This document shows positions 25,632 through 52,374 of a stretch of 64,000 nucleotides of DNA, in pieces. Numbering within the stretch: the stretch's first letter is position 1; every line of letters starts with the position of its first letter. A program made the translations under genes and the position numbers. Under the pieces are notes generated by a model. The model was not told where the DNA came from. It did not search any database and saw only the letters and a program-made list of their open reading frames with translations. The DNA comes from Bradymonadia bacterium (GTDB taxonomy: Bacteria; Myxococcota_A; Bradymonadia; UBA7976; UBA1532): NCBI GenBank assembly GCA_046290225.1, contig JBKAGE010000041.1, positions 32,001-96,000 of the forward strand, written 5' to 3'.

Positions 25632-27896
25632 TCAGCGGCAGAATTGCTGTGCGAGATCGTTGTTGGGCACGCAGCCCGAGACCCCGAAGATGCTGCAGCA
25701 GACGTTGTCGCCAGGGCAAACCTGGGCGTCGTTGCAGGACAGCACGCAAATCTGACCGGCCAGGAACACGTCCTGACACTCTTCGTCCGCCGTGCAGGCG
25801 TTCGGATCATCGCCACAGGCAGGCGGGCCGGCGTCGCCCCACTCGCTCATCATGCGATCCGCGCCGCCCACCTCGATGCACTCGCCGTCGATGCAGAGGT
25901 TGCCGTCACCGCAGTCGCCGTCGTCGAAACAGCCGACACATTCGCCGGTGTCCGGATCACAGACACCCTCGTCGCACTCTACGCCGGCACAGCGGCAGGC
26001 GTCGTCGCGACCGCATACCTGAACCCGCTGGCCATTGCGTTGGATCGGGGTGCAGTTCGAGCCGTCGGGGCAGACATCCTCGCCCTCGTCACAGGCCAGA
26101 CCACAGGCGCGGACCTCCTGGTTGAAGCCCAGGCGGTAGCGTACGCAGTACATGTTGTCGGGGCAGTCGGACTCGTCCTCACACGGGGCGCAGATGAGGG
26201 CCAGCGGATCGACACAGGCGTTGTCGCTGCACACCGTGCCGTCGGCGCAGTCGTCATTGCCCAGGCACTGCACGCACTCGCCAGAGGTGGGATCACAGAG
26301 TTGACCGTCGGCGCAGTCCACCGCCTCACAGGGGTCTTCGCAGACACCCGTCGCAGGATCACAGATACCCGAGGGGCATGCTTCGGGGTTGCACACCCCT
26401 GCGTCGCAGGTCTCACAGACACAGCCCGTGTTGCCCTCACAGAGGAGATCGCGGTTCTCGCCGATGACCTGCACTTCGCAGGTGGCCGGGTTGAAGCGGA
26501 AGGCTTCCCAGAGCTGACGCTCGACTCTGTTCGCCGAGTCGAGGACCTGAGGGCCGAAGTTCTGAGGCTCGGCATCGCCGCAGTTGAAGGTCAGCTGTGC
26601 TGCCCCCTGGGCGCGCTCGTCGCCCTGCGTGAACAGATCGACGCCCACCGTGTACCAGCCCGCCTCGGGCTCACCGAGACGGACCTGCTCTTCGAGGGGC
26701 AGGCGGCGTGGGCCGGCGTCACGGGTCAGGCCTGGGGTGCACCAGTCGGGGCTGCGGTTGTTGGCCCAGCAGTCGAAGGGGCTCTCGAAGTAGACGCCTT
26801 CGGGGTGGAGCACGTGTAGATCGAAGTCGAGGGTGTCGTCGCCCCAGGTGAGGGTGATCCAAGCCTGAGGGGTCAACTCGTCACAGGCGTCGCCGCGGCC
26901 GTCATCGTCGCTGTCGAGCTGGTCGAAGTTCGGTACGTCGCGGCAGTTGTCGCAGGCGTCACCGCGGCCGTCGTCGTCGACGTCGGACTGGCGGTTGGGC
27001 ACCTCGGGACAGTTGTCGGCGGCGTCGGGCACGCCGTCACCGTCGCGATCAGACTCCACGCAAGCGTCGCCGATGCCGTCGCCGTCGCTGTCTTCCTGAT
27101 CGGCGTTCACGTCGAGAGGACAGTTGTCGCAGGCATCGCCCACGCCATCTTCGTCGCCGTCGCCCTGGTTGCGGTTGGGCTCGAGGGGGCAGTTGTCGGC
27201 CATGTCGGGCACGCCATCGAGATCGATGTCGTTCTCGCCGATGGCGCAGGCGTCGCCTGTGCCGTCTCCAGCGTCGTCGGCCTGGTCCGGGTTGGCCACG
27301 TTGGGGCAGTTGTCGCAGGCGTCGCCCACACCATCGTCGTCGGCGTCGCGCTGGCTGTTGTTCGCCTGCTCGGGGCAGTTGTCCACCCCGTCGCGGATGC
27401 CGTCGTTGTCGGTGTCGGCTTCGGGATCACCACCACCTGCGCCGCCAACAGGCCCGCCACCGAAGCCGCCTTCACCGCCAACAGGCTCGCCGCCGAATCC
27501 GCCTTCGCCGCCAACAGGCTCGCCACCAAAGCCGCCCTCACCGCCGAAGCCACCTTCGCCGCCAACAGGCTCGCCGCCGAAGCCACCTTCACCACCGACG
27601 GGCTCGCCGCCGAAGCCGCCCTCACCACCGATGGGCTCACCGCCAAAGCCTCCGACAGGCTCACCACCAGCGCCAGCGACCGGGTCGCCACCCACAGGGG
27701 CACCACCGCCACCGGCTTCACCGCCGCGACCACCGGAGCCCATGCCCCCGCCGTCGACAGCAGCACCACCAGCGGCAGCGTCTTCACCCTCGGACTCGGC
27801 GACAGGATCAGACTCTTCGATACAGCCTGAGACCATCAGGGCCAGGGCCAACAGCACGCCGGCCTTTCGACCAGCGCCTTGCAGCTTCCATCGCAT
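25632..27896 (-). CDS. Lipoprotein with Gly-rich repeats, thrombospondin type-3 repeats, a beta domain and Cys-rich C-terminus
   Basis: Lipobox [15 protein letters not shown] repeats; DNCP...N..Q.D.D.DG.GDAC repeats; ITLTW...DFDLHVLHP. Confidence 0.9.
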
Positions 27897-28091
27897 GTAC
27901 AGCTCTCCGCTTCTTGAACCTGCCTTGCGCAGGTCGACGATTCTCCCGAGCATCCTCTCTGGCATACCGGCCAATCGAGTCCCGGATCAACTGCAGAGAC
28001 GTGGTGCTCGCTATGGTGCGTATGCATATGTGGAGATTTAAGCCGAACACCGCATGGGCAGATGCAGGTGTTTGGTACCAGAGGTACTCAA

Positions 28092-30834: not shown

Positions 30835-31097
30835 AAGGCGTTAAGATGATGAAGCCCTGGCTGGCGATCGCGTGTGTCTCTCTGCTCTGGGGCTGTGGCG
30901 ACAAGCCCAAGGCGGATGAGAAAAAGCCTGCTGCTTCAGGTGGTGAGGCGGCGGCCAGCGCCGCTGGCTTGACCGATCAGGAGCAGACTGCCCTCAAAGA
31001 CGAGCTCGCTGACGAGGCCGAAGCGGCCATCACGCCGGAGAACGCCGAGCAGATGGCCGAGAAGATCGAGGCCGAGCTGAACGCAGAGCTGAAGTGA
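30831..31097 (+). CDS. Small acidic lipoprotein
   Basis: GTGA overlap with the upstream gene; lipobox LWGC. Confidence 0.8.
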   Translation: MKGVKMMKPWLAIACVSLLWGCGDKPKADEKKPAASGGEAAASAAGLTDQEQTALKDELADEAEAAITPENAEQMAEKIEAELNAELK

Positions 31098-31142: not shown

Positions 31143-32456
31143 CTACTTGAGGCCGAAGCGCTCCATTTTGCTGATGAGCGTAGCCCGGTTGATGCCCAAC
31201 GCCCTCGCACATGCGCTTTGGTTGTTGTTCGCGCGAGCGAGGGCTTCGGTGATGAGACTGCGCTCGTAGATCTCTACCCGCGCTTTGAGCGTGAGCGGCT
31301 CGTCGGTTGTCCCAGAGCCGTCGAAGGGGTCCTCGTCGATGTACGTGCTCGGCGCGAGGGCTACCAATCGCTCGATCGTGTGTTGAAGCTCGCGCACGTT
31401 GCCAGGCCAGGGGGCGCCCACAAGCAGCTCAAGGACTCTGGGGCTCAATGTGATGGGGCCCAGCCCGAAGCGCTCGCCATAGATGCGGGCGAAGTGTCGG
31501 GCCAGGGGGCGGACGTCGGCGCGGCGATCCCGCAGCGGGGGGAGCCGGATCGCCACGACGTTGAGGCGGTAATAGAGATCGCGGCGGAAGGTGGACACTT
31601 GATCGAGAGGGCGCCCGCTCATGGCGATGATGCGCACGTCGATGGGCTCGGCCTGCTCCGAGCCCACGGGGCGGACCTCGCGCTCTTGCAGGACTCGGAG
31701 CACTGAGGCCTGAGCCCGAGGCGCCAGGCTGTCGACTTCGTCGAGCACCAGGGTGCCGCCGTGAGCAGCCCGAAACAGGCCCTTTCGACTGCCTGCTGCG
31801 CCTGTGAATGCGCCCTTTACGTAACCGAACAACTCCGCTTCGGCGAGCTCAGCGGGGAGCGCGGCGCAGTTGAAACAGATGTAGGGCCCCTCACGGCGGG
31901 CGGAACTCTCGAGGATGGCCCGGGCCACGCACTCCTTGCCCGTGCCTGTCTCGCCTTCGATCAACACGGTCACGTCGCGGCCGGCGATGCGTTGCACGCG
32001 CTCGGCCACATGCATCATCTCCTGCGACTCGAAGATCATCGTCTGGCCCAGAGACATGCGCGCTTTGAGCGCCTGGTTCTCTCGGGCGAGGCTGCCGGTG
32101 TGCAAGACACGGCGGGCGACGCGTTCGACCTCGTCGGCGTCGAAGGGCTTCTTGAAGTAGTCCATCGCCCCGCGCTTCATCGCCTCTACAGCGGTGCGTT
32201 CGGAGCCGTGGGCGGTGATCATCACGAAGGGTGGGCTGCTCGGCTTCCCTTTGAGCGCCTCGAGCAGCCCGAAGCCGTCGAGCTTGGGCATGCGCAGATC
32301 GCTGATGATCAGGTCGACGTGCTCGGTCTCGAGCATCTCGAGGGCTTCGGCGCCATGTCTGGCTTCGAGCACTGTGGCAGGGAGATCGGACAAGATGGTT
32401 TTGAGGGTGAAGCGGACCGCCGCTTCGTCATCGACCACCAGCACACGAGGTGTCAT
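31143..32456 (-). CDS. sigma54-dependent response regulator (NtrC family)
   Basis: Receiver domain, GETGTGKE, GAFTGA, WPGNVREL, Fis-type HTH. Confidence 0.95.
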   Translation of the reverse strand: MTPRVLVVDDEAAVRFTLKTILSDLPATVLEARHGAEALEMLETEHVDLIISDLRMPKLDGFGLLEALKGKPSSPPFVMITAHGSERTAVEAMKRGAMDYFKKPFDADEVERVARRVLHTGSLARENQALKARMSLGQTMIFESQEMMHVAERVQRIAGRDVTVLIEGETGTGKECVARAILESSARREGPYICFNCAALPAELAEAELFGYVKGAFTGAAGSRKGLFRAAHGGTLVLDEVDSLAPRAQASVLRVLQEREVRPVGSEQAEPIDVRIIAMSGRPLDQVSTFRRDLYYRLNVVAIRLPPLRDRRADVRPLARHFARIYGERFGLGPITLSPRVLELLVGAPWPGNVRELQHTIERLVALAPSTYIDEDPFDGSGTTDEPLTLKARVEIYERSLITEALARANNNQSACARALGINRATLISKMERFGLK

Positions 32457-33694
32457 GGCGTGTCTCCTGCCTTGGGAAGCGTGAGGGTGCTCACGGCGCC
32501 GCCCTCAGGGCGGTTCGCGAGCTCGAGGTTACCGCCGTGCTGCTGGGCCAGCGCCAGCGAGATGGAGAGCCCGAGGCCGCTGCCCTCGGGCTTGTCGGTG
32601 ACGCCCGCCGTGAAAAGGCGCTGGGGGTCGCCCTCGATGCCAGGGCCGTCGTCTTCCACCCGCATCTGAAGATGTGTGTGGCCATCAATGATGACGATGT
32701 CGATCGAGCGTGCGCCGGCTTGAAAGGCGTTGAGCACGAGGTTGCCCAGGATCTGCTTCACCTTTCGGGGGTCGGCTTGCACGGCCCCAGAGCCGGAATG
32801 TGTGAGCACGGCATCTTGGGCGGTGAGCATGGGGGCGTGGAGCAGCACGACCTCGCTGGCGAGCTGGGTCATGTCCACCCTGTGCAGGTTGAGATCGCTC
32901 AAGGGGCGGGCCACGTCGAGCAGGTGATCCATGATGCCGCCCATACGATGGATCTCACCCACCATCACCGTGAGCTGCTCGCTGAGGGCGGTGCCGGGCT
33001 CTGCCTTTCGGGCCATGTGAGTGGCGAGGCCTTGGATGGCCGCCAGCGGGTTCTTCAGCTCGTGGGCCAGGGCGCCGCTGATGGCCGTCAGCTCGCGGTT
33101 GCGCACACGGAGCCCCTCGGCGAGCTGGGCTTGAAGCTGGACCCCATACTCCTTGGAGGCCTCCAGAGCTGCTCGGGTGTTGGCAGTGATGGTGGCCATG
33201 GCGATGGCGAAGGCGATGAGCACATACGCCCAGATGAAGGGGCCCAGCTGCTTGCCCAGCTCGGTCGTGGAGTCGAGCATGCGTGGGACGTACCCCGGGA
33301 GGCGGGGCAACAGGATGGCCGCGATGATCACGAGGCAGCCGAAGCACACGCGGAGCACCATGGCTCGAGAGGGCCCGGAAACCAGTGCAGAGGCCGCCAT
33401 GGTCACCACCAGCACCGCGATGAAGGGACTCTCCAGGCCACCGGTGAGCAACGTCATCATCGATGGACCCACGACGATGGCGTTGAGTGGTAGAGCCGCA
33501 GGCAGCTGATGCATCTGCCTGTAGAGGAGCTGTGTCACTAAAAGTATCGTGAGCGCGACGAGCAGCGGTACCCATCGCCAGAAGGGTTCGCTCGTGTAGA
33601 TGAGCAGGCCGGCCATAGGGGCCACGGTGGCCAGCGCCACGAAGCGGGCGCGGCCGAGGATCATGTCCGGAGAGTTGTCTTGCATGCCCTGCAT
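32453..33694 (-). CDS. Multi-TM sensor histidine kinase
   Basis: Several TM helices; LAHELKNPL, NLVLNA, DDGPG, GSGLGL; ATGA overlap with the regulator. Confidence 0.93.
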   Translation of the reverse strand: MQGMQDNSPDMILGRARFVALATVAPMAGLLIYTSEPFWRWVPLLVALTILLVTQLLYRQMHQLPAALPLNAIVVGPSMMTLLTGGLESPFIAVLVVTMAASALVSGPSRAMVLRVCFGCLVIIAAILLPRLPGYVPRMLDSTTELGKQLGPFIWAYVLIAFAIAMATITANTRAALEASKEYGVQLQAQLAEGLRVRNRELTAISGALAHELKNPLAAIQGLATHMARKAEPGTALSEQLTVMVGEIHRMGGIMDHLLDVARPLSDLNLHRVDMTQLASEVVLLHAPMLTAQDAVLTHSGSGAVQADPRKVKQILGNLVLNAFQAGARSIDIVIIDGHTHLQMRVEDDGPGIEGDPQRLFTAGVTDKPEGSGLGLSISLALAQQHGGNLELANRPEGGAVSTLTLPKAGDTP

Positions 33695-33740
33695 GGCAGG
33701 GACTGTAGAGGCCGACGCCCCGAGATGTCGAATGACATGA

Positions 33741-34493
33741 TCAGGGATCCTCGAGGAAGGGGTCCACGGGCGGGCGCACGCTCAGCTCGATGACGTGCTC
33801 AGCGTCGCCGCAACGGGGCGCGCCCTCCAAGCCGACCGCTATCGGGGTCGAGATGACGGGTGCATCTGCCCCCACCGTAGGCAGGGTGGGGGCGGTGATG
33901 GTCAGCTGCACTTGATCCTGGTTGGGATCGACCTCCAACAAGCGCGGCACCGACAACAGTGGGGTGTCACAGTCTCTCGGCCCATCACAGCAAGGCGTAA
34001 GCCACACCCGCAGCCCCTCGCTCACCCGGGCTGGTGATCCATCGACCACCAGATCGAGGGTGACGTTCGCAGAGTCGAACCCGTCGGCGGTGAGAGGCCT
34101 CTCTGGTGCGGTGACGACCACCTCGTCGGGCAATCGAGCGCTGAGCATCAACGAATCGTCCAGGGCGGTGTACGGCCCCGCTTTCACCTCCACCAGCACT
34201 GGGCCCGGGATACGCCCGAAGCGAATGGGCACTTGGACGAGGCCGTCTTCTGGTGTTGTCGTCTGATGCTCGGTGTCGTCGCCGATGGTGGCCCCCGTGA
34301 CCTGAATCTCCACCTCGCGGCGGAAGAGGCGGGCGGCTTCGTCCAGCTGCACCTCGACGGTGGCGCGGCCCAGACCATCGGCGTATGCCTGAGCTGCGTC
34401 AGTGACGATAGAGATCTCGATCGCGCCCTCTTCGGGGGGATCGATGCATGCACACAAGGCTAGGCCCAATGTGCAGATCCAGGGTGTCCGCAT
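33741..34493 (-). CDS. Lipoprotein with two invasin/Big_1-like Ig domains
   Basis: Lipobox LCAC; duplicated AYADGLGRATVEVQL / LTADGFDSANVTLDL; SD AAGGAG overlaps the secretin stop codon. Confidence 0.7.
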   Translation of the reverse strand: MRTPWICTLGLALCACIDPPEEGAIEISIVTDAAQAYADGLGRATVEVQLDEAARLFRREVEIQVTGATIGDDTEHQTTTPEDGLVQVPIRFGRIPGPVLVEVKAGPYTALDDSLMLSARLPDEVVVTAPERPLTADGFDSANVTLDLVVDGSPARVSEGLRVWLTPCCDGPRDCDTPLLSVPRLLEVDPNQDQVQLTITAPTLPTVGADAPVISTPIAVGLEGAPRCGDAEHVIELSVRPPVDPFLEDP

Positions 34494-34503
34494 CTTCATC
34501 TCC

Positions 34504-36261
34504 TTAGAAGTAGAGTGTCTCGAGGACATCGCGCAGGAATCGGCGGCCGCGGCGCCCGGCGGCGCTGGGCGTGTCGAGATCTTCTTCGGGCAAATCCACC
34601 CCGGTGAAGGTGAGATCGCCCCGGCGAAACTCTCGGTGGAGCGCGCTCCCCCGGGCGTTCGAGAAAGCTGTGAGGTTGTTCCGTGTGGGCTTTAAGAAGT
34701 CCGAGAAACGATCTTGAAGCTGCCGCGAGAGCGCCACCCCACCCTCCGAGAGCTGCCCTTTGTCGTTCAACTGCAGTGGTCGTCGGGGTGTGAGCAGGAT
34801 GATCAGGGTGGCGTTCTGCTCCGACTCGCTCGTTGTGCTGAACAGGTATTGCAAGATGGGGATGTCCCTCAGGATGGGCACCCCGCTTCGGCTGTTGGAG
34901 CGGCGCTTGGTGTTGCCTGCCGCGAGGGCGATGGTCTGCCCGAAGGCCAGCTCCGCGGTGACCGAGGTGCGGTTCTTCACCGTGGCCACTGCCTGCTCGA
35001 AGGTCCCTGGGGCTGCGGTGGGTAAAAAGGCGCCAAACTCGGTGCGCACGCTGACGCGCAAGCGATCGTCTTCCAAGAAGGTGGGGCGGACGTTCAAGGT
35101 GATGCCCACCTCCTTGTTGTACGAGCTGCCCCCGAGCTGGCCTGGGGCGATGTAGGTCACCTCGCTGCCGATGAAGACCTCCGACTCTTCGTTGTCGTGG
35201 GCCACCACTGAGGGTCGGGCGACGATCTCGTTGTGACTGTCGCTGGCGTTGGCGATGTTCAGCGAATAGGTCACCTCGGGCATGCTGATGCTGACGCTGC
35301 TGGAGCCGCTCTCCTCGAAGGAGGTCACCGCACCTGTGGTGACGTCGCGGTTGGTGCTCCGGGAAGCGTCAAGCAGGGTGGAGCCAAATTGCACCTGCAG
35401 AGCCGACAACAGGTTCACGCCTCGCTGGCTGGAAGTAGAGTTCTCCTGTGACAACACCACGGCGTCGAAGACCACCATCTTTGCCGCTTCCGGTGTTTTG
35501 GGGTTCGAGTCCTCAGCGTGTGGTGACTCTTCTGTGTCCACAGGCACGGCGTGTGAGGTGGCCTGCATCGCCTCATGTACAGTACGCCAGGTGTGTAGTC
35601 GTTGGGCGAGTGCGCCTGGAGCTGCACCGCCAGTATTGCGATAGATCTTCAGGTGGTGCGCCGCGGCGTCGTGATCACCCATCGCTGCAGAGACCAGCCC
35701 ATGGGCGCGTTGGATCTGAGGCTCGGTCGATGCCGCGGGCGGCAGGCGCTCGAGGGCAACCTGAGCGGCTTTGGGATCGCCGGCATTGTAGGCGGCCACC
35801 ACCAGGCCGTAGAGCGGCTCTGGTCGCTCGGGAGCAGAGCGTGCGGCCTGAGCGAAGGCCTCACGGGCTTCAGGCCCACGCCGTTGCCTCCACAACAGGC
35901 GCCCCAGCCGATATGCCGCAGCCCAGTGGTGTGGGTTGAACCGCAGCGCCAGCCGATAGCCCACTTCGGCGAGAGATGCCGACTTCTGAGCGCCCGCCTC
36001 GGCCCGCAGGTCGTAGACATAGGCGTTGAAGAAGTGCAAGTGAGCGTCTTGCGGCGCGGCCTGTAACCCAGCGTTGAAGGCCACACTGGCTGCGTCGAGA
36101 TCCCCATCCCACAGCGCGCCCAGGCCATCGGCGAGGGCAGCGCGTGCCCCAGGGGCCGTCGGCGGTACGCGCTGCTGCAAATCGGATGGTAAACGCTCGA
36201 TGCCCTGAGCTGCGCAGCTCATCAGCCAGAGGGCGAGCGAGAACGTGAGTGTGTATCTCAT
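34504..36261 (-). CDS. Lipoprotein TPR::secretin fusion
   Basis: Lipobox LMSC; TPR-like helices; secretin core IVARPSVVAHDNEESEVFIG, EVGITLNVRP, GQTIAL, GVPILRDIPILQYLFS, LIILLTPR. Confidence 0.9.
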   Translation of the reverse strand: MRYTLTFSLALWLMSCAAQGIERLPSDLQQRVPPTAPGARAALADGLGALWDGDLDAASVAFNAGLQAAPQDAHLHFFNAYVYDLRAEAGAQKSASLAEVGYRLALRFNPHHWAAAYRLGRLLWRQRRGPEAREAFAQAARSAPERPEPLYGLVVAAYNAGDPKAAQVALERLPPAASTEPQIQRAHGLVSAAMGDHDAAAHHLKIYRNTGGAAPGALAQRLHTWRTVHEAMQATSHAVPVDTEESPHAEDSNPKTPEAAKMVVFDAVVLSQENSTSSQRGVNLLSALQVQFGSTLLDASRSTNRDVTTGAVTSFEESGSSSVSISMPEVTYSLNIANASDSHNEIVARPSVVAHDNEESEVFIGSEVTYIAPGQLGGSSYNKEVGITLNVRPTFLEDDRLRVSVRTEFGAFLPTAAPGTFEQAVATVKNRTSVTAELAFGQTIALAAGNTKRRSNSRSGVPILRDIPILQYLFSTTSESEQNATLIILLTPRRPLQLNDKGQLSEGGVALSRQLQDRFSDFLKPTRNNLTAFSNARGSALHREFRRGDLTFTGVDLPEEDLDTPSAAGRRGRRFLRDVLETLYF

Positions 36262-36302
36262 GTGCACACCTGTTGGATCGTTTTTTGATGTGTTTTTGGG
36301 GC

Positions 36303-39300
36303 TCAGTGTGATTCGTCCCAACAGATGTTTGTATTGCATGGCACCCCTTTGCCGGGTGTGCAACGCATACAGTCACACCTGCCGTCGATATAGTCTCGAG
36401 CACTGATGCGCTCTTCTGTGCCAAACACCTGAACACGGCTCAGGTTCAATGGCACTCTGCCCCTCTGGTAGATCCAGACGTATCGAGTTGAGGAGATTGA
36501 ACGGAAATACACGTTCTGAGAGAGATGGGCGAAGGGCTTGTCTTGGGGGCTGATGAGATCGAAGGCAGCCTCAGGCGTGGGTGCGCTGAGTTCTGTTGCA
36601 TCAGAAGGTACGAAGGTCTGGGTGTCAGGGTTGTCGAAGTCGGCTTCCCCCTCCTCGGGCTGGCTCACAGTGGCGAGTAGCTGTGCAGTACAGGCCCCTC
36701 GGGGTGCGATGACGTGATAGTTCCCGGCGCCGAGTTGATGGCGGCGCTGATACTTCATGTCATCGCCGAAATAGACATCGTCTTCGCTGAGCGCTGCTTT
36801 GAGGTCGTCCTGGGTCGACAGCACGACCAGGGCACCTTCGAGGCCACCATGGCGTTGCCCTGTGCCGCTGGCGTTCTGAATGACGACTGCGCTGACCTCA
36901 TAGGGTTTGCCGAGATCCACGCGCCACCAGGCGCCGTCTCGATCCGGGCGAAAACCTACCTCTGGGCACTCGGCGAAGCGTTGGGTGGATTGTATACCAC
37001 CGCTGCTGCGAGTCTTATTGCGGATATAGGGGGTGGCGAGGATGAGATCCTGGCGCTCGCGACCGCCCCACTCCACGTGTGAGCCCTTGCAGCTGATGGG
37101 TTGGTTGGGGTTGCTCTCAAGGCGAGTGGGCGCGCTGGGTCCAGTTTTGAGTCGCCGTGCGCTCTTGAACCAGCTCGATACTTCATCGACCACCTTGTGT
37201 AAGAGTTTGGCGGGCTTATTGGGATCTGCGTAGAACATGCCCGAGGTCGTACCTGTCGGGAACTTGTCTTTGATGTCACTGAAAGGCTTGATCGCGTCTT
37301 TGGCCACGGCGCCGAAGACCTTGTTGTCGTACACCATGGAGTATCCGGTGTGCTTGAGCGCGCCGTGTACCTGGCTGCGGACGCCCTCAGGGTTGAGGTT
37401 GCCGAGGCTGGTCGAGCCATAGGACTTGAGCAGCTGTTCACGCACCTTGGGGAAATAACCACCAAGGCCCTTGGCCATATCGTGGGCGAGCTCTGCGCTG
37501 CTGGCGGCTACACCGAAGGCCACTTCTGCGCCTTCGGCGAAGGCCTCGACGATCGGCCCAAGGGGCCCCAGGCAGTCGAGTGTACTATTTGCATTCCACG
37601 AAACATTAAGGCCACTGCTCAGGTTGAGCGAGTTGGCCCTAAAGCGGACCCCGATCGGGCGGTAGGGGCAGTTGGCGTCGAGCCTGAAGTCGATGTGGCG
37701 CTTGCTGAGCTCGATCTCCACGTCCTCTTCGAAACTGATCGGAGGGATGCTCACCTCGGCCTTGATCGCCATCTTGCCTTGGGTGCTGTTGCCTTTCTTC
37801 ACCGTGGACACCAGCAGCACGCCAGCAGCGTCGAGGTAGTCGGACCACCCGCTCAGGTCCACGTCGGCGTAGATCCCCCGGGCCTGACGACCCTTCTTCT
37901 TCTGCCCTGAGTGCCCCGTCTGCCAGTACTCCACCGTGAGATCGCCCACCGTCTTGCCGAGCACCACCCCAGTGCCGCGGGCCATCACACGCTTGCCTTT
38001 GACGCACTTGTTTGCGCTCTCTCGCACAGCCTTGGATGCCAGGATTTGCTGGTTCTTGCCGATGAAGAACCCCATCATCTGGCTCAGATCAGGGCGACCC
38101 GCCACGTCGAGGTTGGCCTCCGAGTCATAGCTCAGACCTTTCACAGAGACCGCATCCAGCGGCACATTGTTGAAGACGCCCGTCATGTCTTCGAATGTCG
38201 CGCCCAGCACGGCGCGGCCGATGACCTGAACGAGCCGGCGGTAGTCGTCGAGGCTGACCTCGGCGGCGTTGAAGGCGAAGGCGTTGTCCACCTTGCACGT
38301 CTTCAGGGTGCACTGCGCGTAGAGAAAGTAGTCCTTCGACTCGCCCTGGTACGTGACGGTGGTCTTCCTGGCCCAGGCCTTTAACACCTTCTTGACGCCC
38401 CGTGCCCCACCCTGAGTGCTGCGGATCTCCACCACAGGCTCGGTCATGGTCAGGCCGTCGATGGTGAAGATGTTGCTCCACCGCTGACGGCTCAGCCGCA
38501 CCCACCACGTCTTCCGCGGCCTGGGGTTGCAGTCATCTGCTGCGGCCTTGCCATGAGCGGCGTGCACGCGCACGCCGCAGTCTCCATTGCAGAATCCGAT
38601 GCTCGTGAGGGCGCTCCTCAGATCGCCAGCGCCCAGAGACACGCGGCCGAAGACGTTCTGGCCGCCGACCATGGCGAGGGTTTGGCGCGTGTCCACTTGC
38701 TGGATGCGGGTCCGGATGGGAGTGGGGAGCCCGCTCATGGCGACGGCGCTGTGGGCGTTGTCGAAGGGCACCCACAGGAACACCGTGTGCTGCACCTTCA
38801 CGTCTCCGAGCTCGTTGAGGTAGGGCACCTCGGTGAGCAGGGTAGACAAGTCGAACTTCGCATCCTGAGGCAGCAAGGCGATGTTGGGCTGGTTCTTCTT
38901 TTGGCCGTCGAGCGTGGGCCAGTAGAGGACGAGCTGGAAGTTGGCGCCGAGCAGCCTGAGGTTCTTCTGGTACCACGTCACCCCAGCCTCAGTGCGCTTG
39001 TCCAGCGTGGCGTCGGCGAGATTGTCGAGGGCGTTGTGGACCAACCCTTGATTGTTCGAGCCCACAGCTTGGCGGGCCTGTGACACGATCTGCTTGTCCG
39101 GGTTGTTGCCAGTCGCTGGGGGATTGCCGCCCACAGGAGGGCTAGGTTGGCCCACTGAGGGGCTGCCGCCACCGTCGCCTGTAGGGAAGATGACCCCGGT
39201 GAGCGTCAGCCAGGAGGCCACCGTGCCGCCCTCGGCGAAGCTCAGCTGCCCATTGCCCTTGAGCTCGAGCCGGGCAGACTTGCTGTCGCTGTGGCTGCTG

Positions 39301-41078
39301 AAAGTGTGGGCGCTCGCGGGCCCGCTGCCGCGGGGCAAGGTGAGGAAGGTTGCTCTAGGCGCGTTGGTGATGAGGCCGGTGAGTACGGTGAAGGGCCCAA
39401 CGTTGGTGGCTCGGGGCGGGCCAAAGCCGTCCGAGCCATAGGGGACAGCGCCGTTGAGGGCCATGGCGCTGCCTTTCCCCGTGGGGAACGCGATGCCCGC
39501 GAGGCTGATCCAGCCGCCGTGGTCGGGGGTGTGGAGGAAGACCTCACCGTTGGGCTGGATGTCCACTCGGCCTTGTCCATTTTGGATGGCCACCTGAAAC
39601 ATCAGCCGCTCTGCGGGGCGCAAATGGTTGGGCAGAGTGGTGATACGGCCGCGACCGCGTCGGCCACGTACCATGCCGGACAGCACCACTAGATTACGGT
39701 GTTTGTACGCGCGCAAGTCTCCGTAATTCTGGCCGAAGTGGCTGAACCCGGAGGCTGGGGTCAAGCGCTCGGCGTCACGCGTGGAAAAGGTGAGCCCGTC
39801 GAAGCTGATCCGGCCTCGGGTAATGGGGTAGTCCTCACGAGCGACGATGTGTCCGTTGGGTCGTATCTCGAGCTGCACGATGTCAGCGCCTTGGGGCCGG
39901 CTGAAGATCTGTTTCTTGAGCGGACGCATCCCGAGGGGTAGCTGCGCGATGGCGCTCAGGCGTGTTGTACGGGTCATGCCGTGGAGCACGACGATCGGTG
40001 GATCGGCCGTGGCCGAAGGGGTCCCGTAGGGGCGCCCCCATCTTTTGTCCCCGTACAACAGCTCCAGTGGTTTGGTGCCTTCGACCACTGGGGCCTCACC
40101 GCCGGGCAGGAGCACGAGGCCAGAGACGGTGAGCCACGAACCCTCGACGCCACCCTCGGAGAACTGCAGGCCACCCTCAGTAAATAGGTCGAGGCGGGCT
40201 GTTCGATCGCCGCTGTAGCCGTTGAGAATTCGCATACTGGCGGTGCGCAGCTCTCTGGGCAGCGTGAAGAGCGTCTCTTCGGAGTTGGCGTTGGTCACCA
40301 TGCCCGTCAGCACGGCGAAGGGCCCTGCCATGAACACTCGAGGTGGGCCGAAGCCGACGTTACGGTACGGATTTACACCAGGCCCAAGGGGCAGCAACTT
40401 GCCCTGCTTCGTGGGGAACACCACCCCTGACAAGTTGACGCGCCCGCCGTGATCGGCGGTGTGCAAGTGCACCTCGCCGTTGATCTCCACATGCACCCGG
40501 AGCGGGCCATCGACGCCAGCAACCTGGAACATCAGGCGTTCTTTGGGTCGCAACTGAGCCGGCAGTGTCGTGATTCGGCCGCGGCCAGCAGGCGCGTGGA
40601 CCAAGCCCATCAGCACCACGAGGTCTCGATGTTTGTAGGCTCTCAGATCGCCATAGCCGTTCTCCCAATTGCGAAAGCCAGAGCCCAACGAGAGGCGCTC
40701 GGCCTCTCTCGTGGAGAAGGTGATCCCATCGAGGCTGACCCAGTTGCCCAAGGGGGCGCCGCCATCCTTCACCTTGATGTAGCCGGCGTTGTCCACGGCG
40801 ATCTGGAGGGTGCCCTCGCCTTTGTTCTGGCTGAAGACAAGCGTGCGCGAAGGGCGCATGTTTCGAGGCAGGCGGGCGATTTTTCCGCGTTTGGTGGTGT
40901 GCACCACCCCATGCAGCACCACGATGGGATCATCGCGGGTCGCTGCAGGGGTGGCGTAGGGGCTGCCCCAGGCTCGAGCGCCGTTGAGCAGCTCCAGTGG
41001 CGTGGTCGTGTGGGCGTGCGCTTTGACGCCCCACAACACCCAAAATATAACAACGAGATGACGAAGGCCGGTGTGCAC
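36303..41078 (-). CDS. 1591-aa secreted protein: six phage RBP-head-like repeats, central domain, C-terminal fucolectin/discoidin-like domain
   Basis: Signal peptide (..VKAHA); six ~100-aa repeats with V.L.G..I..LP...RP....F...G...W.SL.G..F; WWRVDLGKPYEVSAVVIQN..RYVWI..LNLSRVQVFG. Confidence 0.85.
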   Translation of the reverse strand: MHTGLRHLVVIFWVLWGVKAHAHTTTPLELLNGARAWGSPYATPAATRDDPIVVLHGVVHTTKRGKIARLPRNMRPSRTLVFSQNKGEGTLQIAVDNAGYIKVKDGGAPLGNWVSLDGITFSTREAERLSLGSGFRNWENGYGDLRAYKHRDLVVLMGLVHAPAGRGRITTLPAQLRPKERLMFQVAGVDGPLRVHVEINGEVHLHTADHGGRVNLSGVVFPTKQGKLLPLGPGVNPYRNVGFGPPRVFMAGPFAVLTGMVTNANSEETLFTLPRELRTASMRILNGYSGDRTARLDLFTEGGLQFSEGGVEGSWLTVSGLVLLPGGEAPVVEGTKPLELLYGDKRWGRPYGTPSATADPPIVVLHGMTRTTRLSAIAQLPLGMRPLKKQIFSRPQGADIVQLEIRPNGHIVAREDYPITRGRISFDGLTFSTRDAERLTPASGFSHFGQNYGDLRAYKHRNLVVLSGMVRGRRGRGRITTLPNHLRPAERLMFQVAIQNGQGRVDIQPNGEVFLHTPDHGGWISLAGIAFPTGKGSAMALNGAVPYGSDGFGPPRATNVGPFTVLTGLITNAPRATFLTLPRGSGPASAHTFSSHSDSKSARLELKGNGQLSFAEGGTVASWLTLTGVIFPTGDGGGSPSVGQPSPPVGGNPPATGNNPDKQIVSQARQAVGSNNQGLVHNALDNLADATLDKRTEAGVTWYQKNLRLLGANFQLVLYWPTLDGQKKNQPNIALLPQDAKFDLSTLLTEVPYLNELGDVKVQHTVFLWVPFDNAHSAVAMSGLPTPIRTRIQQVDTRQTLAMVGGQNVFGRVSLGAGDLRSALTSIGFCNGDCGVRVHAAHGKAAADDCNPRPRKTWWVRLSRQRWSNIFTIDGLTMTEPVVEIRSTQGGARGVKKVLKAWARKTTVTYQGESKDYFLYAQCTLKTCKVDNAFAFNAAEVSLDDYRRLVQVIGRAVLGATFEDMTGVFNNVPLDAVSVKGLSYDSEANLDVAGRPDLSQMMGFFIGKNQQILASKAVRESANKCVKGKRVMARGTGVVLGKTVGDLTVEYWQTGHSGQKKKGRQARGIYADVDLSGWSDYLDAAGVLLVSTVKKGNSTQGKMAIKAEVSIPPISFEEDVEIELSKRHIDFRLDANCPYRPIGVRFRANSLNLSSGLNVSWNANSTLDCLGPLGPIVEAFAEGAEVAFGVAASSAELAHDMAKGLGGYFPKVREQLLKSYGSTSLGNLNPEGVRSQVHGALKHTGYSMVYDNKVFGAVAKDAIKPFSDIKDKFPTGTTSGMFYADPNKPAKLLHKVVDEVSSWFKSARRLKTGPSAPTRLESNPNQPISCKGSHVEWGGRERQDLILATPYIRNKTRSSGGIQSTQRFAECPEVGFRPDRDGAWWRVDLGKPYEVSAVVIQNASGTGQRHGGLEGALVVLSTQDDLKAALSEDDVYFGDDMKYQRRHQLGAGNYHVIAPRGACTAQLLATVSQPEEGEADFDNPDTQTFVPSDATELSAPTPEAAFDLISPQDKPFAHLSQNVYFRSISSTRYVWIYQRGRVPLNLSRVQVFGTEERISARDYIDGRCDCMRCTPGKGVPCNTNICWDESH

Positions 41079-41114
41079 GTGCTTCCCTCCTGCGATGTGC
41101 AGAGGGGCGGTTCA

Positions 41115-41208
41115 GCACAGGCTATACCAGCTGAGAATCGGCCTTAAATCGGGCGCTGTCGGTGAAATGTGTTGGCTTGCTCGACAGGGCCTGTCGAAGA
41201 ATTCGACA
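41115..41208 (-). promoter_or_regulatory. sigma54-type promoter with tandem upstream activator-like palindromes
   Basis: Minus strand TGGTATAGCCTGTGC (41129-41115; GG-10 nt-GC); TGTTG-N7-CGACA (41170-41186) and TGTCG-N7-CGACA (41192-41208). Confidence 0.65.
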
Positions 41209-47444: not shown

Positions 47445-47590
47445 TCACTTTTGGGCGCTGGGCGCGCGTGCCTGGGGGCCGAAGTGCTTCAGCAGCACCT
47501 CTGTGTGCTCTTCGATTCCCTTTGCCATACGTTGACTGTCGCGGGCTGCGAAACGGCGATTCAGGTCGTATTCGTTGGCGATGGATTCAT
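47445..47590 (-). pseudogene. C-terminal remnant of a fourth lipoprotein paralog
   Basis: IEEHTEVLLKHFGP matches IEEHEELLLKHFGP of the neighbouring gene; the ATG at 47590 is out of frame with the remnant. Confidence 0.7.
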
Positions 47591-48429
47591 GGCTGAGTCT
47601 CATGGCTGTACCTGAGCACAGGCACAGAGCGCCGTGGTCCGAAGTGCTTGAGCAGCAACTCTTCGTGCTCTTCGATGAAGACTGCATGTTCGAGGGCTCT
47701 TCGAGCTGCCTTCACATGAGGTGAGTCGTCATCGTCGGCGATGTCGGCGAGTATTTCGTGTGCCGCCGGTTGCCGAGTCCATCCGAGGGCGCGGGTACAG
47801 TTGAGGTTGATGCTCCACAGATGACTGCGTGTATGTCGCGTATCGGAAGAGCGTACGTTGATGCTGGTGGCATCTGCCTGAGACGGATGGCCGCTGCATG
47901 CCATGAGGTACTCAGCGATCAGTCGGCTCTCTTGCGGGTGGCTGTCGGCAAAGCGTCCAGCGAGAACGCCCAATGACCAGATGGCGGTCGTGGTTCTATA
48001 ACGACGCCAGACTTGGCCACTCGATTGAGCAACACTCAGGTACGCCCGGATACCACGGGCGTCTTCGATGTGGCCCGAAAAGGCGATGACCTGCATCGAA
48101 CCGCCGGCACACCCCAGATGATTGTCACGCATCATGGTGAAGGCCGCGGCAACATCCTCTGGTGGGTACGATGCAAACCGTAAGAGATCAGTCGCTCTCG
48201 TGGTGTGCGAGCTGTGCCCACAGCTGGCGTGCCAACATGCATAGTCTTCTACTGCGATGGGTTTTGCCTTGGCGAGTCGCTTCACAGCCCTTTCGATGAT
48301 CTCTTCGAAAGACAAGTGCTCGTCAGGTTTGGGGCCAAACCGGAGGCGTTTCTTTTGAGCACAGCCTGCTGCGAGCACACTCCACACGAGTACCCACGAA
48401 GAGACCATCTGCATCCAGGAGCGCTTCAT
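47587..48429 (-). CDS. Hypothetical lipoprotein, tandem paralog 3
   Basis: Lipobox LAAGC; AC-x4-CG, CAGG, IAFSG, LG.LAGRF motifs shared with neighbours. Confidence 0.8.
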   Translation of the reverse strand: MKRSWMQMVSSWVLVWSVLAAGCAQKKRLRFGPKPDEHLSFEEIIERAVKRLAKAKPIAVEDYACWHASCGHSSHTTRATDLLRFASYPPEDVAAAFTMMRDNHLGCAGGSMQVIAFSGHIEDARGIRAYLSVAQSSGQVWRRYRTTTAIWSLGVLAGRFADSHPQESRLIAEYLMACSGHPSQADATSINVRSSDTRHTRSHLWSINLNCTRALGWTRQPAAHEILADIADDDDSPHVKAARRALEHAVFIEEHEELLLKHFGPRRSVPVLRYSHETQP

Positions 48430-49265
48430 GGGGTGCTCTGATGCGATGTGTCACCTCTTTCGAGGGTGGGCTGAGGACCCAAGTACGCTCGCAGTAGCTC
48501 TTCGTGATCTTCGATGAACTCAAAGGTGTCGAGGCTGGCCTGCGCGGCGCCGCTGCGATGGGCATTGTCTCCGTCGACGGTGGCTTCCAGCGTTTCGCGG
48601 GCGGCCTCACTGCGCGTATAGGCGAGGCCCTGGATGCAGATGATGCCGAGGGCATGGCGGGCGTTGGCGGCGTCTTTTTCGTTGCGGGCTCGGGAGTCGA
48701 GGTGGGGCAAGCGGTCCCAGGCCGTGGGATCACTGCACGTGACGAGATACATAGTGACTGCGCGGCTCGCCTGGGGTTCGGTGTCAGCGAAGCGCCCGGC
48801 GAGTATCCCCAGCGCTCTGATGGCCGCGATGCGGCCGTGGCTGTACCAAAGCTCGTCGTCGGGCCTCGGCGCCTCGATGTATGCCCTGACGTGCGCTGCG
48901 TCGCTGATGTGGCCTGAGAAGGCTGCGATGCGCATTGCTCCGCCTGCGCATCCCTTTCGCCGCTCAGTGTCGAGGAGCGGCCAGAGGGTGGCGACCTCTG
49001 ATGCCGAGAAGGATGCGTCGCCGAGCACGTGGGCCCAATGCTCGGTGTAAGCCCCGTGGCCACATCCTTCTGCGCAGCACGCCTGGATCTTGATGCTCAC
49101 TTTCGACCGTCGGGCGTGCATATGAACCGCACCTTCCAACAACTCGTCGAGCGGCCAATCTTCGTCGTACACCGGCAACGCGCCAGGAGGCCTCTGTCGA
49201 GCGCAGCCGGCCGCGAGCATGGCCACGAGCCACATACACGAGATGCTGATGCTCTGCCGCTTCAG
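48426..49265 (-). CDS. Hypothetical lipoprotein, tandem paralog 2 (probable CTG start; first ATG at 49235)
   Basis: Lipobox LAAGC; same motifs; in-frame CTG-AAG-CGG overlapping the upstream stop codon. Confidence 0.8.
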   Translation of the reverse strand: MKRQSISISCMWLVAMLAAGCARQRPPGALPVYDEDWPLDELLEGAVHMHARRSKVSIKIQACCAEGCGHGAYTEHWAHVLGDASFSASEVATLWPLLDTERRKGCAGGAMRIAAFSGHISDAAHVRAYIEAPRPDDELWYSHGRIAAIRALGILAGRFADTEPQASRAVTMYLVTCSDPTAWDRLPHLDSRARNEKDAANARHALGIICIQGLAYTRSEAARETLEATVDGDNAHRSGAAQASLDTFEFIEDHEELLRAYLGPQPTLERGDTSHQSTP

Positions 49266-50062
49266 GGTTGCCCCCGATCTTCAACGGCGCTTTGTTCACG
49301 GGAGCCTAAGTGTTCGAGAACCAAGGCTTCGTTGTCGTCGATGAACTTCACGAGGCGCAGCGCCCGTTGGGCGGTGAAGCTACGTACATCATCAGCCTCT
49401 CGCGAGATCTCGCGCAGTACCTCGTGTGCCCTCGCATTGCGGGTGTAAGCGAGGGCGCTGATGCAAGGCTCGGTCAGGCTGTTGTTGATGAGCGCCCCAG
49501 AGGATCTCGCGGAGGTGTGTTGCGCGAACTCGGGTTGTGCCAGCCAGTGATCATCCCGAGTGCACGTGATGAGATCATCTGTAATTCGAGCGTTCACGTC
49601 GGGTGCAATGTCCACAAATCGCCCAGCGATAACCCCCAACGCCTGCACCGCTGGGGTGTGCACGAATCGATATGAACGCTCACCGCGGGCTTTGATGAGG
49701 GCCATGAACGCTCTCGTCCGTTCGATGTCACTGAGATCGCCAGAGAAAGCGATGGCCTGAAGCACGCCGGGGGCGCAGCGCGCCCCGTCGTACGTATGGA
49801 GCAGTGCCCAGGCATCATCGAGTTCACGGCGTGTGTGAGAGGCAGCCCAGAGCAAATCGGCGACGAGCTCATGCGCAATGTGGTTGCCACAGCCCCTCAA
49901 GTCACACGCATAGTGTTCGATCGTGTAGTCAGGCTGATGTCGGAGCGCTGATGTGAAGAGCGCTTCGACAGAGGCGTCGGCGTTTGGGGGCGTGACACGT
50001 TCGGGGGTGCATCCACAGGTGAGCATGCCCAGCAGCAAAAGCTTGATGTGCATACATCTCAT
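49262..50062 (-). CDS. Hypothetical lipoprotein, tandem paralog 1
   Basis: Lipobox LTCGC; YACDLRGCG, CAPG, IAFSG, ALGVIAGRF, CISALAYTR. Confidence 0.8.
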   Translation of the reverse strand: MRCMHIKLLLLGMLTCGCTPERVTPPNADASVEALFTSALRHQPDYTIEHYACDLRGCGNHIAHELVADLLWAASHTRRELDDAWALLHTYDGARCAPGVLQAIAFSGDLSDIERTRAFMALIKARGERSYRFVHTPAVQALGVIAGRFVDIAPDVNARITDDLITCTRDDHWLAQPEFAQHTSARSSGALINNSLTEPCISALAYTRNARAHEVLREISREADDVRSFTAQRALRLVKFIDDNEALVLEHLGSREQSAVEDRGQP

Positions 50063-50116: not shown

Positions 50117-51358
50117 TCACCGCCCCTTGCGACACTCTTCGAGTGTCTTCGTATCTCGCCTGCTGATGGGCAAAGCGCAGTCGAGTTGCTTGCCCAAGGC
50201 CCGCAGCGCGTCATTGAGTCCGGCAGATTGCCCCGTGGCGCGGCCTTCATGTGCGCGATACAGCTGCGGATATAACGGCGCCCCCTTCACGTTCATTCTC
50301 CGAGCCGGGATCAGATACCGCGGGGACTCACCCCACTCGGGCTCGAGCACCATCTGATAGGCCTCGTCGGAGGCCAGGAACTCGATGAACGCCCGGGCCA
50401 CTGCGAGCTTGCGCCCCTTCAAACCAGCATCCAATGCCAGACCATCCACCCAGCCAATGCCTGTGGCTGCGTCATCGATGGTGGCCTGAGGCAGGGCACG
50501 CACTGCGAGCTCTTCAGGGCGAAGGCAAGCATCCGTAGGACCGCAGCTCTGCTGCACTTCACTCATCGCCGCATGCAGGGTCTCGGAGTAGCCCACATAT
50601 GCATCCGCTTCACCACGCACGAAGGCTCGGGCGTAGTAACCCACTCGATCGTGGAGCGCGTCGTTTCGGCAATGACCTGCAGGGCAGCTCTGGAGAATCT
50701 GCGACATCAGCTCGACGACCCGTGAATCGAGAGGGGCGCCGGACATGATTTTTGCCTCGGCCGCTTTGGCGCCTTCGAATTGAGAGAGCAGCGTGAGGTA
50801 CCACTCGCCGAGGGTGGACTTCCCCTTGAAGTCTACGAACATCGCCCGCTTCCGCCCTGCGAGCACCGCGTTCACTTCAGCCCAGGTCCGGGCCTGGGCC
50901 AGCTCGGTGTCATGGGCGCGGTGAAACAGGAAGTTCCCGCACATCCAGTGGGGCACCGCCCAGGTCTGGCCGTCGCGCTGCACCGCTTGCAGGGCCATCT
51001 CGGCGTAAGGCCCCACCGGGGGCTTCGCGTAGGGCTGCAGCTTCTTGGCGGCGATCATGTCGCTGAGCATCACCGTGTCGATCTCGTAGACGTCGGCCTG
51101 CACTTTCGACAGCCCGCCGGAGTAGTAGTGCCACGTGAGAGCTGGGGTTTCGACCAGCTCGACGTTCACCCCGGGGTGGGCTTTCTCGAAGGCCGCTTCG
51201 AGTTCGAAGAACAGTCCGCGTGCATCAGGTACGTAAGGGTAGAGGGCCACCCTCAGCGTGAGGGGCTCAGCAGCCTTGAGGCGAGTGTGGCCACAGCCAG
51301 CGAGCACGAGCAGCGTGAGCACGTGGGTGAGCAGCCTGATATGACCCGGGGCCGGCAT
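50117..51358 (-). CDS. Thiaminase I (thiamine pyridinylase)-like lipoprotein
   Basis: Lipobox LAGC; VALYPYVPD, DVYEID, VPHWMCGNFLF (catalytic Cys position), VGYSE (catalytic Glu position). Confidence 0.82.
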   Translation of the reverse strand: MPAPGHIRLLTHVLTLLVLAGCGHTRLKAAEPLTLRVALYPYVPDARGLFFELEAAFEKAHPGVNVELVETPALTWHYYSGGLSKVQADVYEIDTVMLSDMIAAKKLQPYAKPPVGPYAEMALQAVQRDGQTWAVPHWMCGNFLFHRAHDTELAQARTWAEVNAVLAGRKRAMFVDFKGKSTLGEWYLTLLSQFEGAKAAEAKIMSGAPLDSRVVELMSQILQSCPAGHCRNDALHDRVGYYARAFVRGEADAYVGYSETLHAAMSEVQQSCGPTDACLRPEELAVRALPQATIDDAATGIGWVDGLALDAGLKGRKLAVARAFIEFLASDEAYQMVLEPEWGESPRYLIPARRMNVKGAPLYPQLYRAHEGRATGQSAGLNDALRALGKQLDCALPISRRDTKTLEECRKGR

Positions 51359-51369
51359 GGGGGCTCCGA

Positions 51370-52374
51370 TCAGCGATCGCAGATCGACTCGCAGTTCGAC
51401 GTGCTGTCTTCGTTCGCGGCACATACCGCCCAGCATGCTGTGCGGCCCTCGGGGGTGTCGAAGTTACATGCTTGCTTGCAGTTGGAGGTGCTTTCACCAC
51501 GGGCGATGCAGACCTGGGCACAGGCGGCTTGCCCCAGCCCAGTGTCGATGTCGCAATCCTGTCTGCAGTTGCGAGGCGTGTCGTTACGGTTGAGACAGAG
51601 TTGGACACAGGCGGCTTCACCTGCGGGGGTGTCGATGTCGCAGTCCTGCCTGCAGTTGCGAGGGGTGTCGTTGCGGTCGATACAGACCTGGACACAGCCT
51701 GCCTGCCCCAGTCCAGTGTCGATGTCGCAGTCCTGTCTGCAGTTGCGGGCGGTGTCCCCACGGAGGAGGCAGATCTGAGCACAGCCTGCTTCCCCACATG
51801 CCGTGTCGATGTTGCAGTCTTGCCTGCAGTTGCGAGCTGTTTGGCCGCTCTCGATACAGGCTTGGGTGCAGCCGAACTGATCTTCTGGTGTGTCGAGCCC
51901 ACACGTGCTCCGACAGGAAGACAAGGAGTTGCCTTCGTCAATGCAGCTGATCCAGCAGGGGTCGGCGCCGTCACAAACCTCTGCGGGCATGGGAGCAGGC
52001 CCGGGGTCTGGATCCGCGCCCCCAGAGCCTCCGACGGGCCCGGCGCCACCGTCAGCCCCCGGGATGCCGCCGCACGAATCGCAAAGCACCCAACACGAAA
52101 GTGGATCGTCATCGCCACAGATGTCGGGGTCGCAACACGTCTCCCTGGTGTCGGTGCAGGTGCAATCACCAGCCGTGCAGTCGTAGCGCGCCTCGCAATT
52201 GGGGGCGCCCACCCCAGAGTCTTCGGCGGTCATGCCGCCATCTCCCCGGTTGACGACCCTGACCTCACCGTCGTCGTCATCTTCCGAGCAGCCCGTGAGC
52301 GAACACGTGAGCAGACCCATCAAGAAGATTCGAGTGATGGTGTATCGGCGTCTATGTGTATGCACATGTGTCAT
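51370..52374 (-). CDS. Cys-rich repeat lipoprotein (seven 29-aa units)
   Basis: Lipobox LTGC; CRQDCDIDT...CVQVCIDRNDTPRN units with 87-bp DNA periodicity. Confidence 0.85.
   Translation of the reverse strand: MTHVHTHRRRYTITRIFLMGLLTCSLTGCSEDDDDGEVRVVNRGDGGMTAEDSGVGAPNCEARYDCTAGDCTCTDTRETCCDPDICGDDDPLSCWVLCDSCGGIPGADGGAGPVGGSGGADPDPGPAPMPAEVCDGADPCWISCIDEGNSLSSCRSTCGLDTPEDQFGCTQACIESGQTARNCRQDCNIDTACGEAGCAQICLLRGDTARNCRQDCDIDTGLGQAGCVQVCIDRNDTPRNCRQDCDIDTPAGEAACVQLCLNRNDTPRNCRQDCDIDTGLGQAACAQVCIARGESTSNCKQACNFDTPEGRTACWAVCAANEDSTSNCESICDR

Follow-up and report, generated by a model that had tools for sequence, protein, structure and literature searches.

How a secretin might function in an operon that encodes a very large secreted protein and no secretion machine is the question raised by this locus. 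Secretins are gated rings of 12 to 16 subunits in the outer membrane. They have been described as the gates of motor-driven machines, namely T2SS, T3SS, type IV pili and filamentous phage extrusion (PMC12475490; papers given by PMC number are drawn on for the available parts of their text). A literature search, mostly of freely readable papers without supplements, found no description of the TPR-fused secretin family to which this locus belongs. The cluster is a real and conserved stand-alone secretin system, apparently undescribed, for which we infer a function in export.

A five-gene cluster and its proposed control

The window, by which we mean the whole 64-kb stretch of DNA analysed, contains five tightly packed minus-strand genes, and a re-check of open reading frames and Pfam matches bore out the gene order, the intergenic gaps (41, 10 and 46 bp) and the GAFTGA activator of the original prediction. 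The kinase and activator genes overlap by 4 bp, and the base composition of the cluster is that of the genome, whose gene content suggests a myxobacterial host. The features are as follows.

31143-32456, minus strand: sigma54-dependent response regulator with receiver, Sigma54_activat (GAFTGA) and HTH_8 domains (Pfam)
32453-33694, minus strand: membrane histidine kinase with HisKA and HATPase domains (Pfam)
33741-34493, minus strand: 250-aa lipoprotein with two ADG-type repeats, putative accessory part (lipobox)
34504-36261, minus strand: lipoprotein TPR::secretin, 585 aa from the ATG, lipobox at Cys16 (Pfam, alignment, model)
36303-41078, minus strand: 1591-aa predicted Sec-exported protein, putative cargo (signal peptide by eye; homologues adjoin family secretins)
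36816-36956, minus strand: F5/8 type C (discoidin/fucolectin-like) motif (Pfam E 4.5e-5, below cut-off; PDB E 0.2)
37359-39056, minus strand: conserved core of about 560 aa, a long beta-sheet followed by helices (profile and model)
39174-40997, minus strand: six repeats of about 97 aa in two sets of three, like a phage minor tail protein C-terminal domain (PHROG)
41114-41129, minus strand: weak sigma54-type -24/-12 motif, GG-N10-GC (8/12 consensus positions)
41181-41208, no strand assigned: overlapping inverted repeats made up of three alternating TGTCGA/TCGACA half-sites, putative binding site of the activator (position)

The T2SS and Tad queries (GspC/E/F/H/I/J/K, TadA/B/C and CpaB, 11 in all) had no tblastn match in the window, consistent with the earlier observation that no secretion machinery lies near the secretin. 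Other lipoprotein-like genes are found in the window. A small one, seen by eye at about 30850-31095 on the plus strand, converges on the activator gene; a 780-aa lipoprotein with a Gly-rich spacer, thrombospondin type 3 repeats and Cys-rich repeats lies at 25632-27974; and three tandem lipoprotein-like genes of similar size at 47587-50062 are followed by a thiaminase-I-like lipoprotein at 50117-51436.

Sigma54 control of the operon had been proposed from a -24/-12 motif with palindromic sites upstream. The palindromes were confirmed as an inverted repeat at 41192-41208, of which the genome has four exact sites. The TGTCGA/TCGACA half-sites lie approximately 50-80 bp above the -24 element, a position that would suit the binding of an activator. 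A terminator reading of the inverted repeats was set aside because no T-run follows them. The GG-N10-GC motif at 41129-41114 is by itself weak evidence because 75 sites in the window score as high. In locus L006, which carries a gene homologous to that of the large protein, a perfect 12/12 motif lies upstream of this gene and a kinase and a sigma54 activator adjoin it, and in L086 a near-consensus motif was seen by eye before the homologous gene, together with a homologous kinase. As a prediction, sigma54 control is supported mainly by these relatives and not by the window motif alone. Neither the kinase nor the activator of the window is closely orthologous to its L006 counterpart (36% for the activator).

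The 250-aa lipoprotein had been labelled invasin-Ig-like (Big_1), a label that found no support, as the protein has no match in Pfam at E 0.1, in NCBIfam, in PHROG or among PDB sequences. Nor does such a lipoprotein recur as a regular neighbour: in 158 loci of the secretin family, a single homologue was found, which immediately follows the L085 secretin (32% over 167 aa), and a further homologue search brought no others. Because the L085 secretin is the closest to the window secretin in the tree, the lipoprotein is specific to this subclade and is not a general part of the family loci.

The TPR::secretin and the machines of known secretins

The description of the 585-aa protein as a lipoprotein TPR::secretin proved correct. 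It has a lipobox, and both the PF00263 match (93.9 bits against a cut-off of 27.5) and the TPR match lie above their cut-offs, while Pfam gave no match to a Secretin_N or STN domain. In the model of the monomer (mean pLDDT 77), helices at residues 37-236 are followed by a disordered linker, a beta-domain at 262-493 and further helices at 506-584, the TPR part thus passing to the barrel through the linker with no N0-N3 domains. The best 40 Foldseek matches of the model are all secretins (E 4e-13); a VIA search with the whole model was uninformative, returning only TPR proteins.

A homologue search with the secretin retrieved 283 proteins at E 0.001 among 8,000 candidates, and an alignment of 50 rows shows a common layout of lipobox, TPR block, variable linker, barrel and conserved tail, with the gate glycines G365 and G386 invariant. 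The lipobox, by a pattern of our own, is present in 39 of 61 family rows and absent in the other 22. The tail is helical, carries EFRxGD and terminates in L-Y, a motif conserved in part (57-58%). Short gate loops were rejected as a hallmark of the family, since their median length of 24 lies slightly below the 28 of other secretins and is not distinctive, and co-variation between TPR and tail on 263 rows was dominated by noise and gave no clear signal. In RcpA, the last four residues are required for TadD binding, according to the available text of PMC10499894. Because the C-terminus of RcpA binds TadD and the family tail ends in the partly conserved L-Y, it is plausible that the secretin's own TPR acts as its pilotin, that is, that the protein is self-piloting. 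A lipid-anchored self-piloting secretin, HxcQ of a T2SS, is cited in PMC12475490.

The comparison with GspD, PilQ, RcpA, SctC and pIV proposed earlier places the family on a branch of its own. In an unrooted tree built on 174 barrel columns, the 61 family rows, which were picked with the family profile, are separated by a 100/100 branch from 36 other secretins (GspD, PilQ, RcpA, MshL, pIV, SctC and Amuc_1098-type), and a mixture model applied to 53 rows, with long branches removed, supports the family branch at 100/99. The class models of NCBIfam agree: those for PilQ, GspD and MshL score 75.5, 72.3 and 45.1 bits against cut-offs of 284, 351 and 250, and that for SctC 47.9 against 238, all far below threshold. 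With GspD the family shares the secretin fold, the gate glycines and Sec-exported proteins as likely passengers, but it forms a separate clade and has no GspE or GspF in its loci; the window secretin reaches only 72 bits against the 351-bit cut-off of TIGR02517, and the N0-N3 domains required of T2SS and type IV pilus secretins (GspD, PilQ, MshL) are absent from the window secretin.

The nearest rows in the tree are of the RcpA type, with weak support (96/75, and 86/97 in the mixture model). RcpA with TadD (PDB 8odn, PMC10499894) likewise combines a secretin barrel with a TPR lipoprotein, and an RcpA-TadD-like origin would fit the tree position, which does not demonstrate it. In contrast to that pair, the window family is a single polypeptide with no N-domain and a long conserved helical tail, and its 158 loci contain no TadA/B/C, CpaB or pilin. 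Another paper, PMC10305379, which by its available text concerns a Tad secretin, was set aside as irrelevant.

These 158 loci (2.53 Mb; 78 from genomes and 80 from metagenomes) belong mostly to marine Alphaproteobacteria, with beta-proteobacteria, Thermodesulfobacteriota and one verrucomicrobium. The 11 queries gave no match in them at E 1e-4, a search that does recover the host genome's own paralogues, although the minor components diverge too quickly for it to reach across phyla, and no prepilin motif was found in the called genes. Two family secretins stand in tandem at L020:1777-5703, and secretin matches number three in genome G005 and four in G042. No family member was found in phage records, and one plasmid carries one. 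On an Asticcacaulis plasmid (L209:7557-12969), a divergent family member lies among unannotated secreted-looking proteins.

Given that the host genome (99% complete) encodes T2SS, T4P and Tad systems, the window secretin could be a swap-in part that uses one of these motors from elsewhere, an alternative raised with the original prediction. In keeping with it, a platform protein is present in 32 of 50 carrier genomes. However, the N-domains that contact a platform are absent from the model, and the reading is disfavoured because each of the three host systems has its own secretin; beyond the window, the genome has one secretin in a tad cluster, another in a gsp cluster and, where a contig ends, a fragment that lies before aroK/aroB-like genes and was read as a probable pilQ. 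Among the same 50 genomes, drawn from the 78 loci, 14 lack PF00437, 18 lack PF00482 and 13 lack both ATPase and platform, counts that are not independent because most of the platform-less genomes are related Thalassospira/Rhodospirillales, and that include many MAGs of unreported completeness. A single secretin is present in 12 of the 18 genomes without PF00482. We consider the swap-in explanation highly improbable. The notion of a stand-alone secretin/adhesin module, with which it had been paired, gains from the recurrence of the neighbourhood across phyla and from the genomes that have no pilus or T2SS machinery. In a separate case, L191 (genome G034) has a GspD-like secretin and no ATPase or platform was found in the genome, possibly because the assembly is incomplete.

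Five Thalassospira genomes allowed other machines to be considered. None has a prepilin domain; FHIPEP has one match in each, read as flagellar FlhA; and Zot occurs in one, on a contig other than that of the secretin. In G036, a Thalassospira chromosome titled complete, the family member is the only secretin, with one FHIPEP match and neither prepilin nor Zot. A type III assignment, for which a non-flagellar export apparatus would be expected, thus seems not to apply in the five genomes tested, and the near absence of Zot, together with pIV rows that branch apart from the family, would likewise argue against a filamentous-phage pIV. The clade, as the only secretin in cultured, harmless marine bacteria that have none of those machines, makes motor-free protein passage testable.

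The large protein and the neighbours of family secretins

The 1591-aa protein consists of parts with different relationships. Its six repeats resemble PHROG 3639, 3285 and 13362 (best E 4e-5 in the window and 1.3e-9 for a repeat in L006), with matches for four of the six window repeats and none for the other two, and they resemble unnamed ESM Atlas clusters at 0.94-0.95. Trimeric receptor-binding heads are familiar from phage structures, and the two sets of three repeats may mimic such a head within one chain. The F5/8 motif of the window is below cut-off, and full F5/8 matches were found in the relative L087.

The core could be followed only with a profile, as a direct search found nothing but itself. 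The profile finds 143 representatives, and the first ~160 aa of the core repeat in tandem in proteins of 2,000-5,800 aa. Because the core or its repeat unit was detected in 20 proteins of other family loci, the large protein can be tied to the giant neighbours of other secretins. In 78 genomes of one order, a sample whose centre genome was chosen as a carrier, the core is found in five, the secretin in 14, and both in four of the five core carriers; G504 is a core carrier without the secretin, and some core genes are far from the secretin. In 400 other genomes of the host phylum, neither the secretin nor the core was found, and because both are missing there, the pair is suggested to be a mobile module.

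Around the family secretins, the pairing with large secreted proteins recurs across phyla, as the original prediction would have it. Of the 78 genome loci, 37 have a tectonin/Cys-rich lectin group, 31 have AraC regulators, 17 have pentapeptide proteins and nine have giant proteins. Domains of the tectonin, ricin-B, F5/8, jacalin, DM9, SUEL or crystallin type are present in many of 53 hand-picked neighbours. Signal peptides, called with a home-made heuristic, were assigned to 52 of 77 adjacent same-strand genes (three of the 52 being FAD-monooxygenase false positives) versus 30 of 158 genes more than 5 kb away in 62 clusters. One of five cargo profiles matches within 1.5 kb of the secretin in 24 of 41 long-flanked clusters and none in the other 17; there is no universal cargo signal. 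In three close relatives, an FAD monooxygenase gene lies between cargo and secretin (L006:8698-9822, L087:3433-4587, L089:2597-3715). Pentapeptide-repeat proteins, several with signal peptides, often lie directly after the secretin (L019:11726-12802 and 16 other loci). In the upstream neighbours at L151:7340-9889 and L036:4532-6847, Cys-rich repeats and a C-terminal lectin flank a hydrophobic helical middle, a layout that by eye resembles membrane-inserting proteins.

These neighbours could also serve an uptake pore for glycans or solutes, with the lectin proteins capturing substrate at the surface or plugging the pore after arriving by another route. Diffusion would require no motor, TAXI-type solute-binding proteins adjoin the secretin in eight of the 78 loci, sometimes with an MFS protein, and AraC or two-component regulators are frequent. 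Uptake would nevertheless leave lectin-headed neighbours of 800 to >3,000 aa in need of an exit, with 13 of 50 genomes lacking T2SS parts; glycoside hydrolases are rare beside the secretin (one of 53 scanned neighbours), and the window operon has no transporter. We regard an uptake function as rather unlikely.

The core model (pLDDT 83.5, pTM 0.83) bears on another question, namely whether anything large crosses the pore at all. Its long sheet ends in a helix-grip-like part with weak START-type matches (Z 5.9 or less), and together with the tandem copies of its first part in giant proteins, this would suit a bridge or scaffold, possibly for lipids, in which the neighbours are periplasmic-face partners that replace the N-domains. 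The pentapeptide proteins could play such a role, as the lower ring of PilQ in a cyanobacterium is made of a pentapeptide protein (PMC12475490). In that nozzle, as described in the available part of the paper, PilQ retains its N-domains. The window has no pentapeptide gene. Tail-tip-like repeats and ricin-B, jacalin and tectonin heads are, by contrast, characteristic of proteins that bind ligands outside the cell, and around the core they vary freely. The fold matches of the core all lie in the background range: Foldseek gave no match at E 0.001 and the best VIA Z was 7.6. No PDB sequence match to the core or repeat profiles had an E below 0.19. The lack of a clear match does not in itself prove a new fold. 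ESM Atlas searches returned clusters without names and, at 0.78, a weak lead to DUF6603, which was not used. Overall, a purely periplasmic role is decidedly unlikely.

A possible motor-less route for export or display

The explanation towards which we lean slightly is that the TPR-fused secretin without N-domains acts as a motor-less outer-membrane pore that exports or displays the adjoining large protein. The activator would turn the operon on through the sigma54 promoter, and Sec would deliver the secretin and the large protein to the periplasm. The lipid anchor would then bring the secretin to the outer membrane, where the ring would form with its own TPR as pilotin, comparable to TadD for RcpA. 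The beta-sheet core of the cargo would engage the pore and either pass through or lodge there; as in Slam/type XI secretion, folding and binding would provide the drive in place of an ATPase. The binding heads would come to lie outside, where they would serve adhesion or the recognition of other cells. Energy and gating are the weak point of this motor-less reading.

Slam offers an analogy of operation: a periplasmic TPR part is joined to an outer-membrane barrel, the cargo is encoded nearby, and the system is sufficient alone for export, according to the available text of PMC8406197. The barrel of the family is, however, a secretin (PF00263) and not the DUF560 barrel of Slam, and the neighbours scanned showed no barrel of the TbpB type. 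Synthase-dependent polysaccharide export shares the layout of TPR plus barrel (PMC8406197), as in PgaA or BcsC, and slime secretion depends on secretins (PMC12475490), raising the thought that the pore is an exit for polysaccharide. With no glycosyltransferase or synthase among the recurrent neighbour families scanned, this is the explanation to which we give the least credence.

Extended beyond the window, motor-less export might amount to a new class of secretion system. Its self-piloting secretin would need no ATPase, platform or pilus to move or anchor Sec-exported adhesins, which can reach several thousand residues; an unclassified beta-sheet domain would engage the pore, and lectin or phage-tail-tip heads would be interchangeable. 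We advance this tentatively, at somewhat less than an even chance. If true, marine Alphaproteobacteria and scattered other phyla would have one more route for surface adhesins, and structural work would gain a minimal two-gene pore. Elsewhere in the host genome, on a contig without a family secretin, an 852-aa protein (G000:C39:78574-81132) ends in three tail-tip-like repeats and is a possible second substrate.
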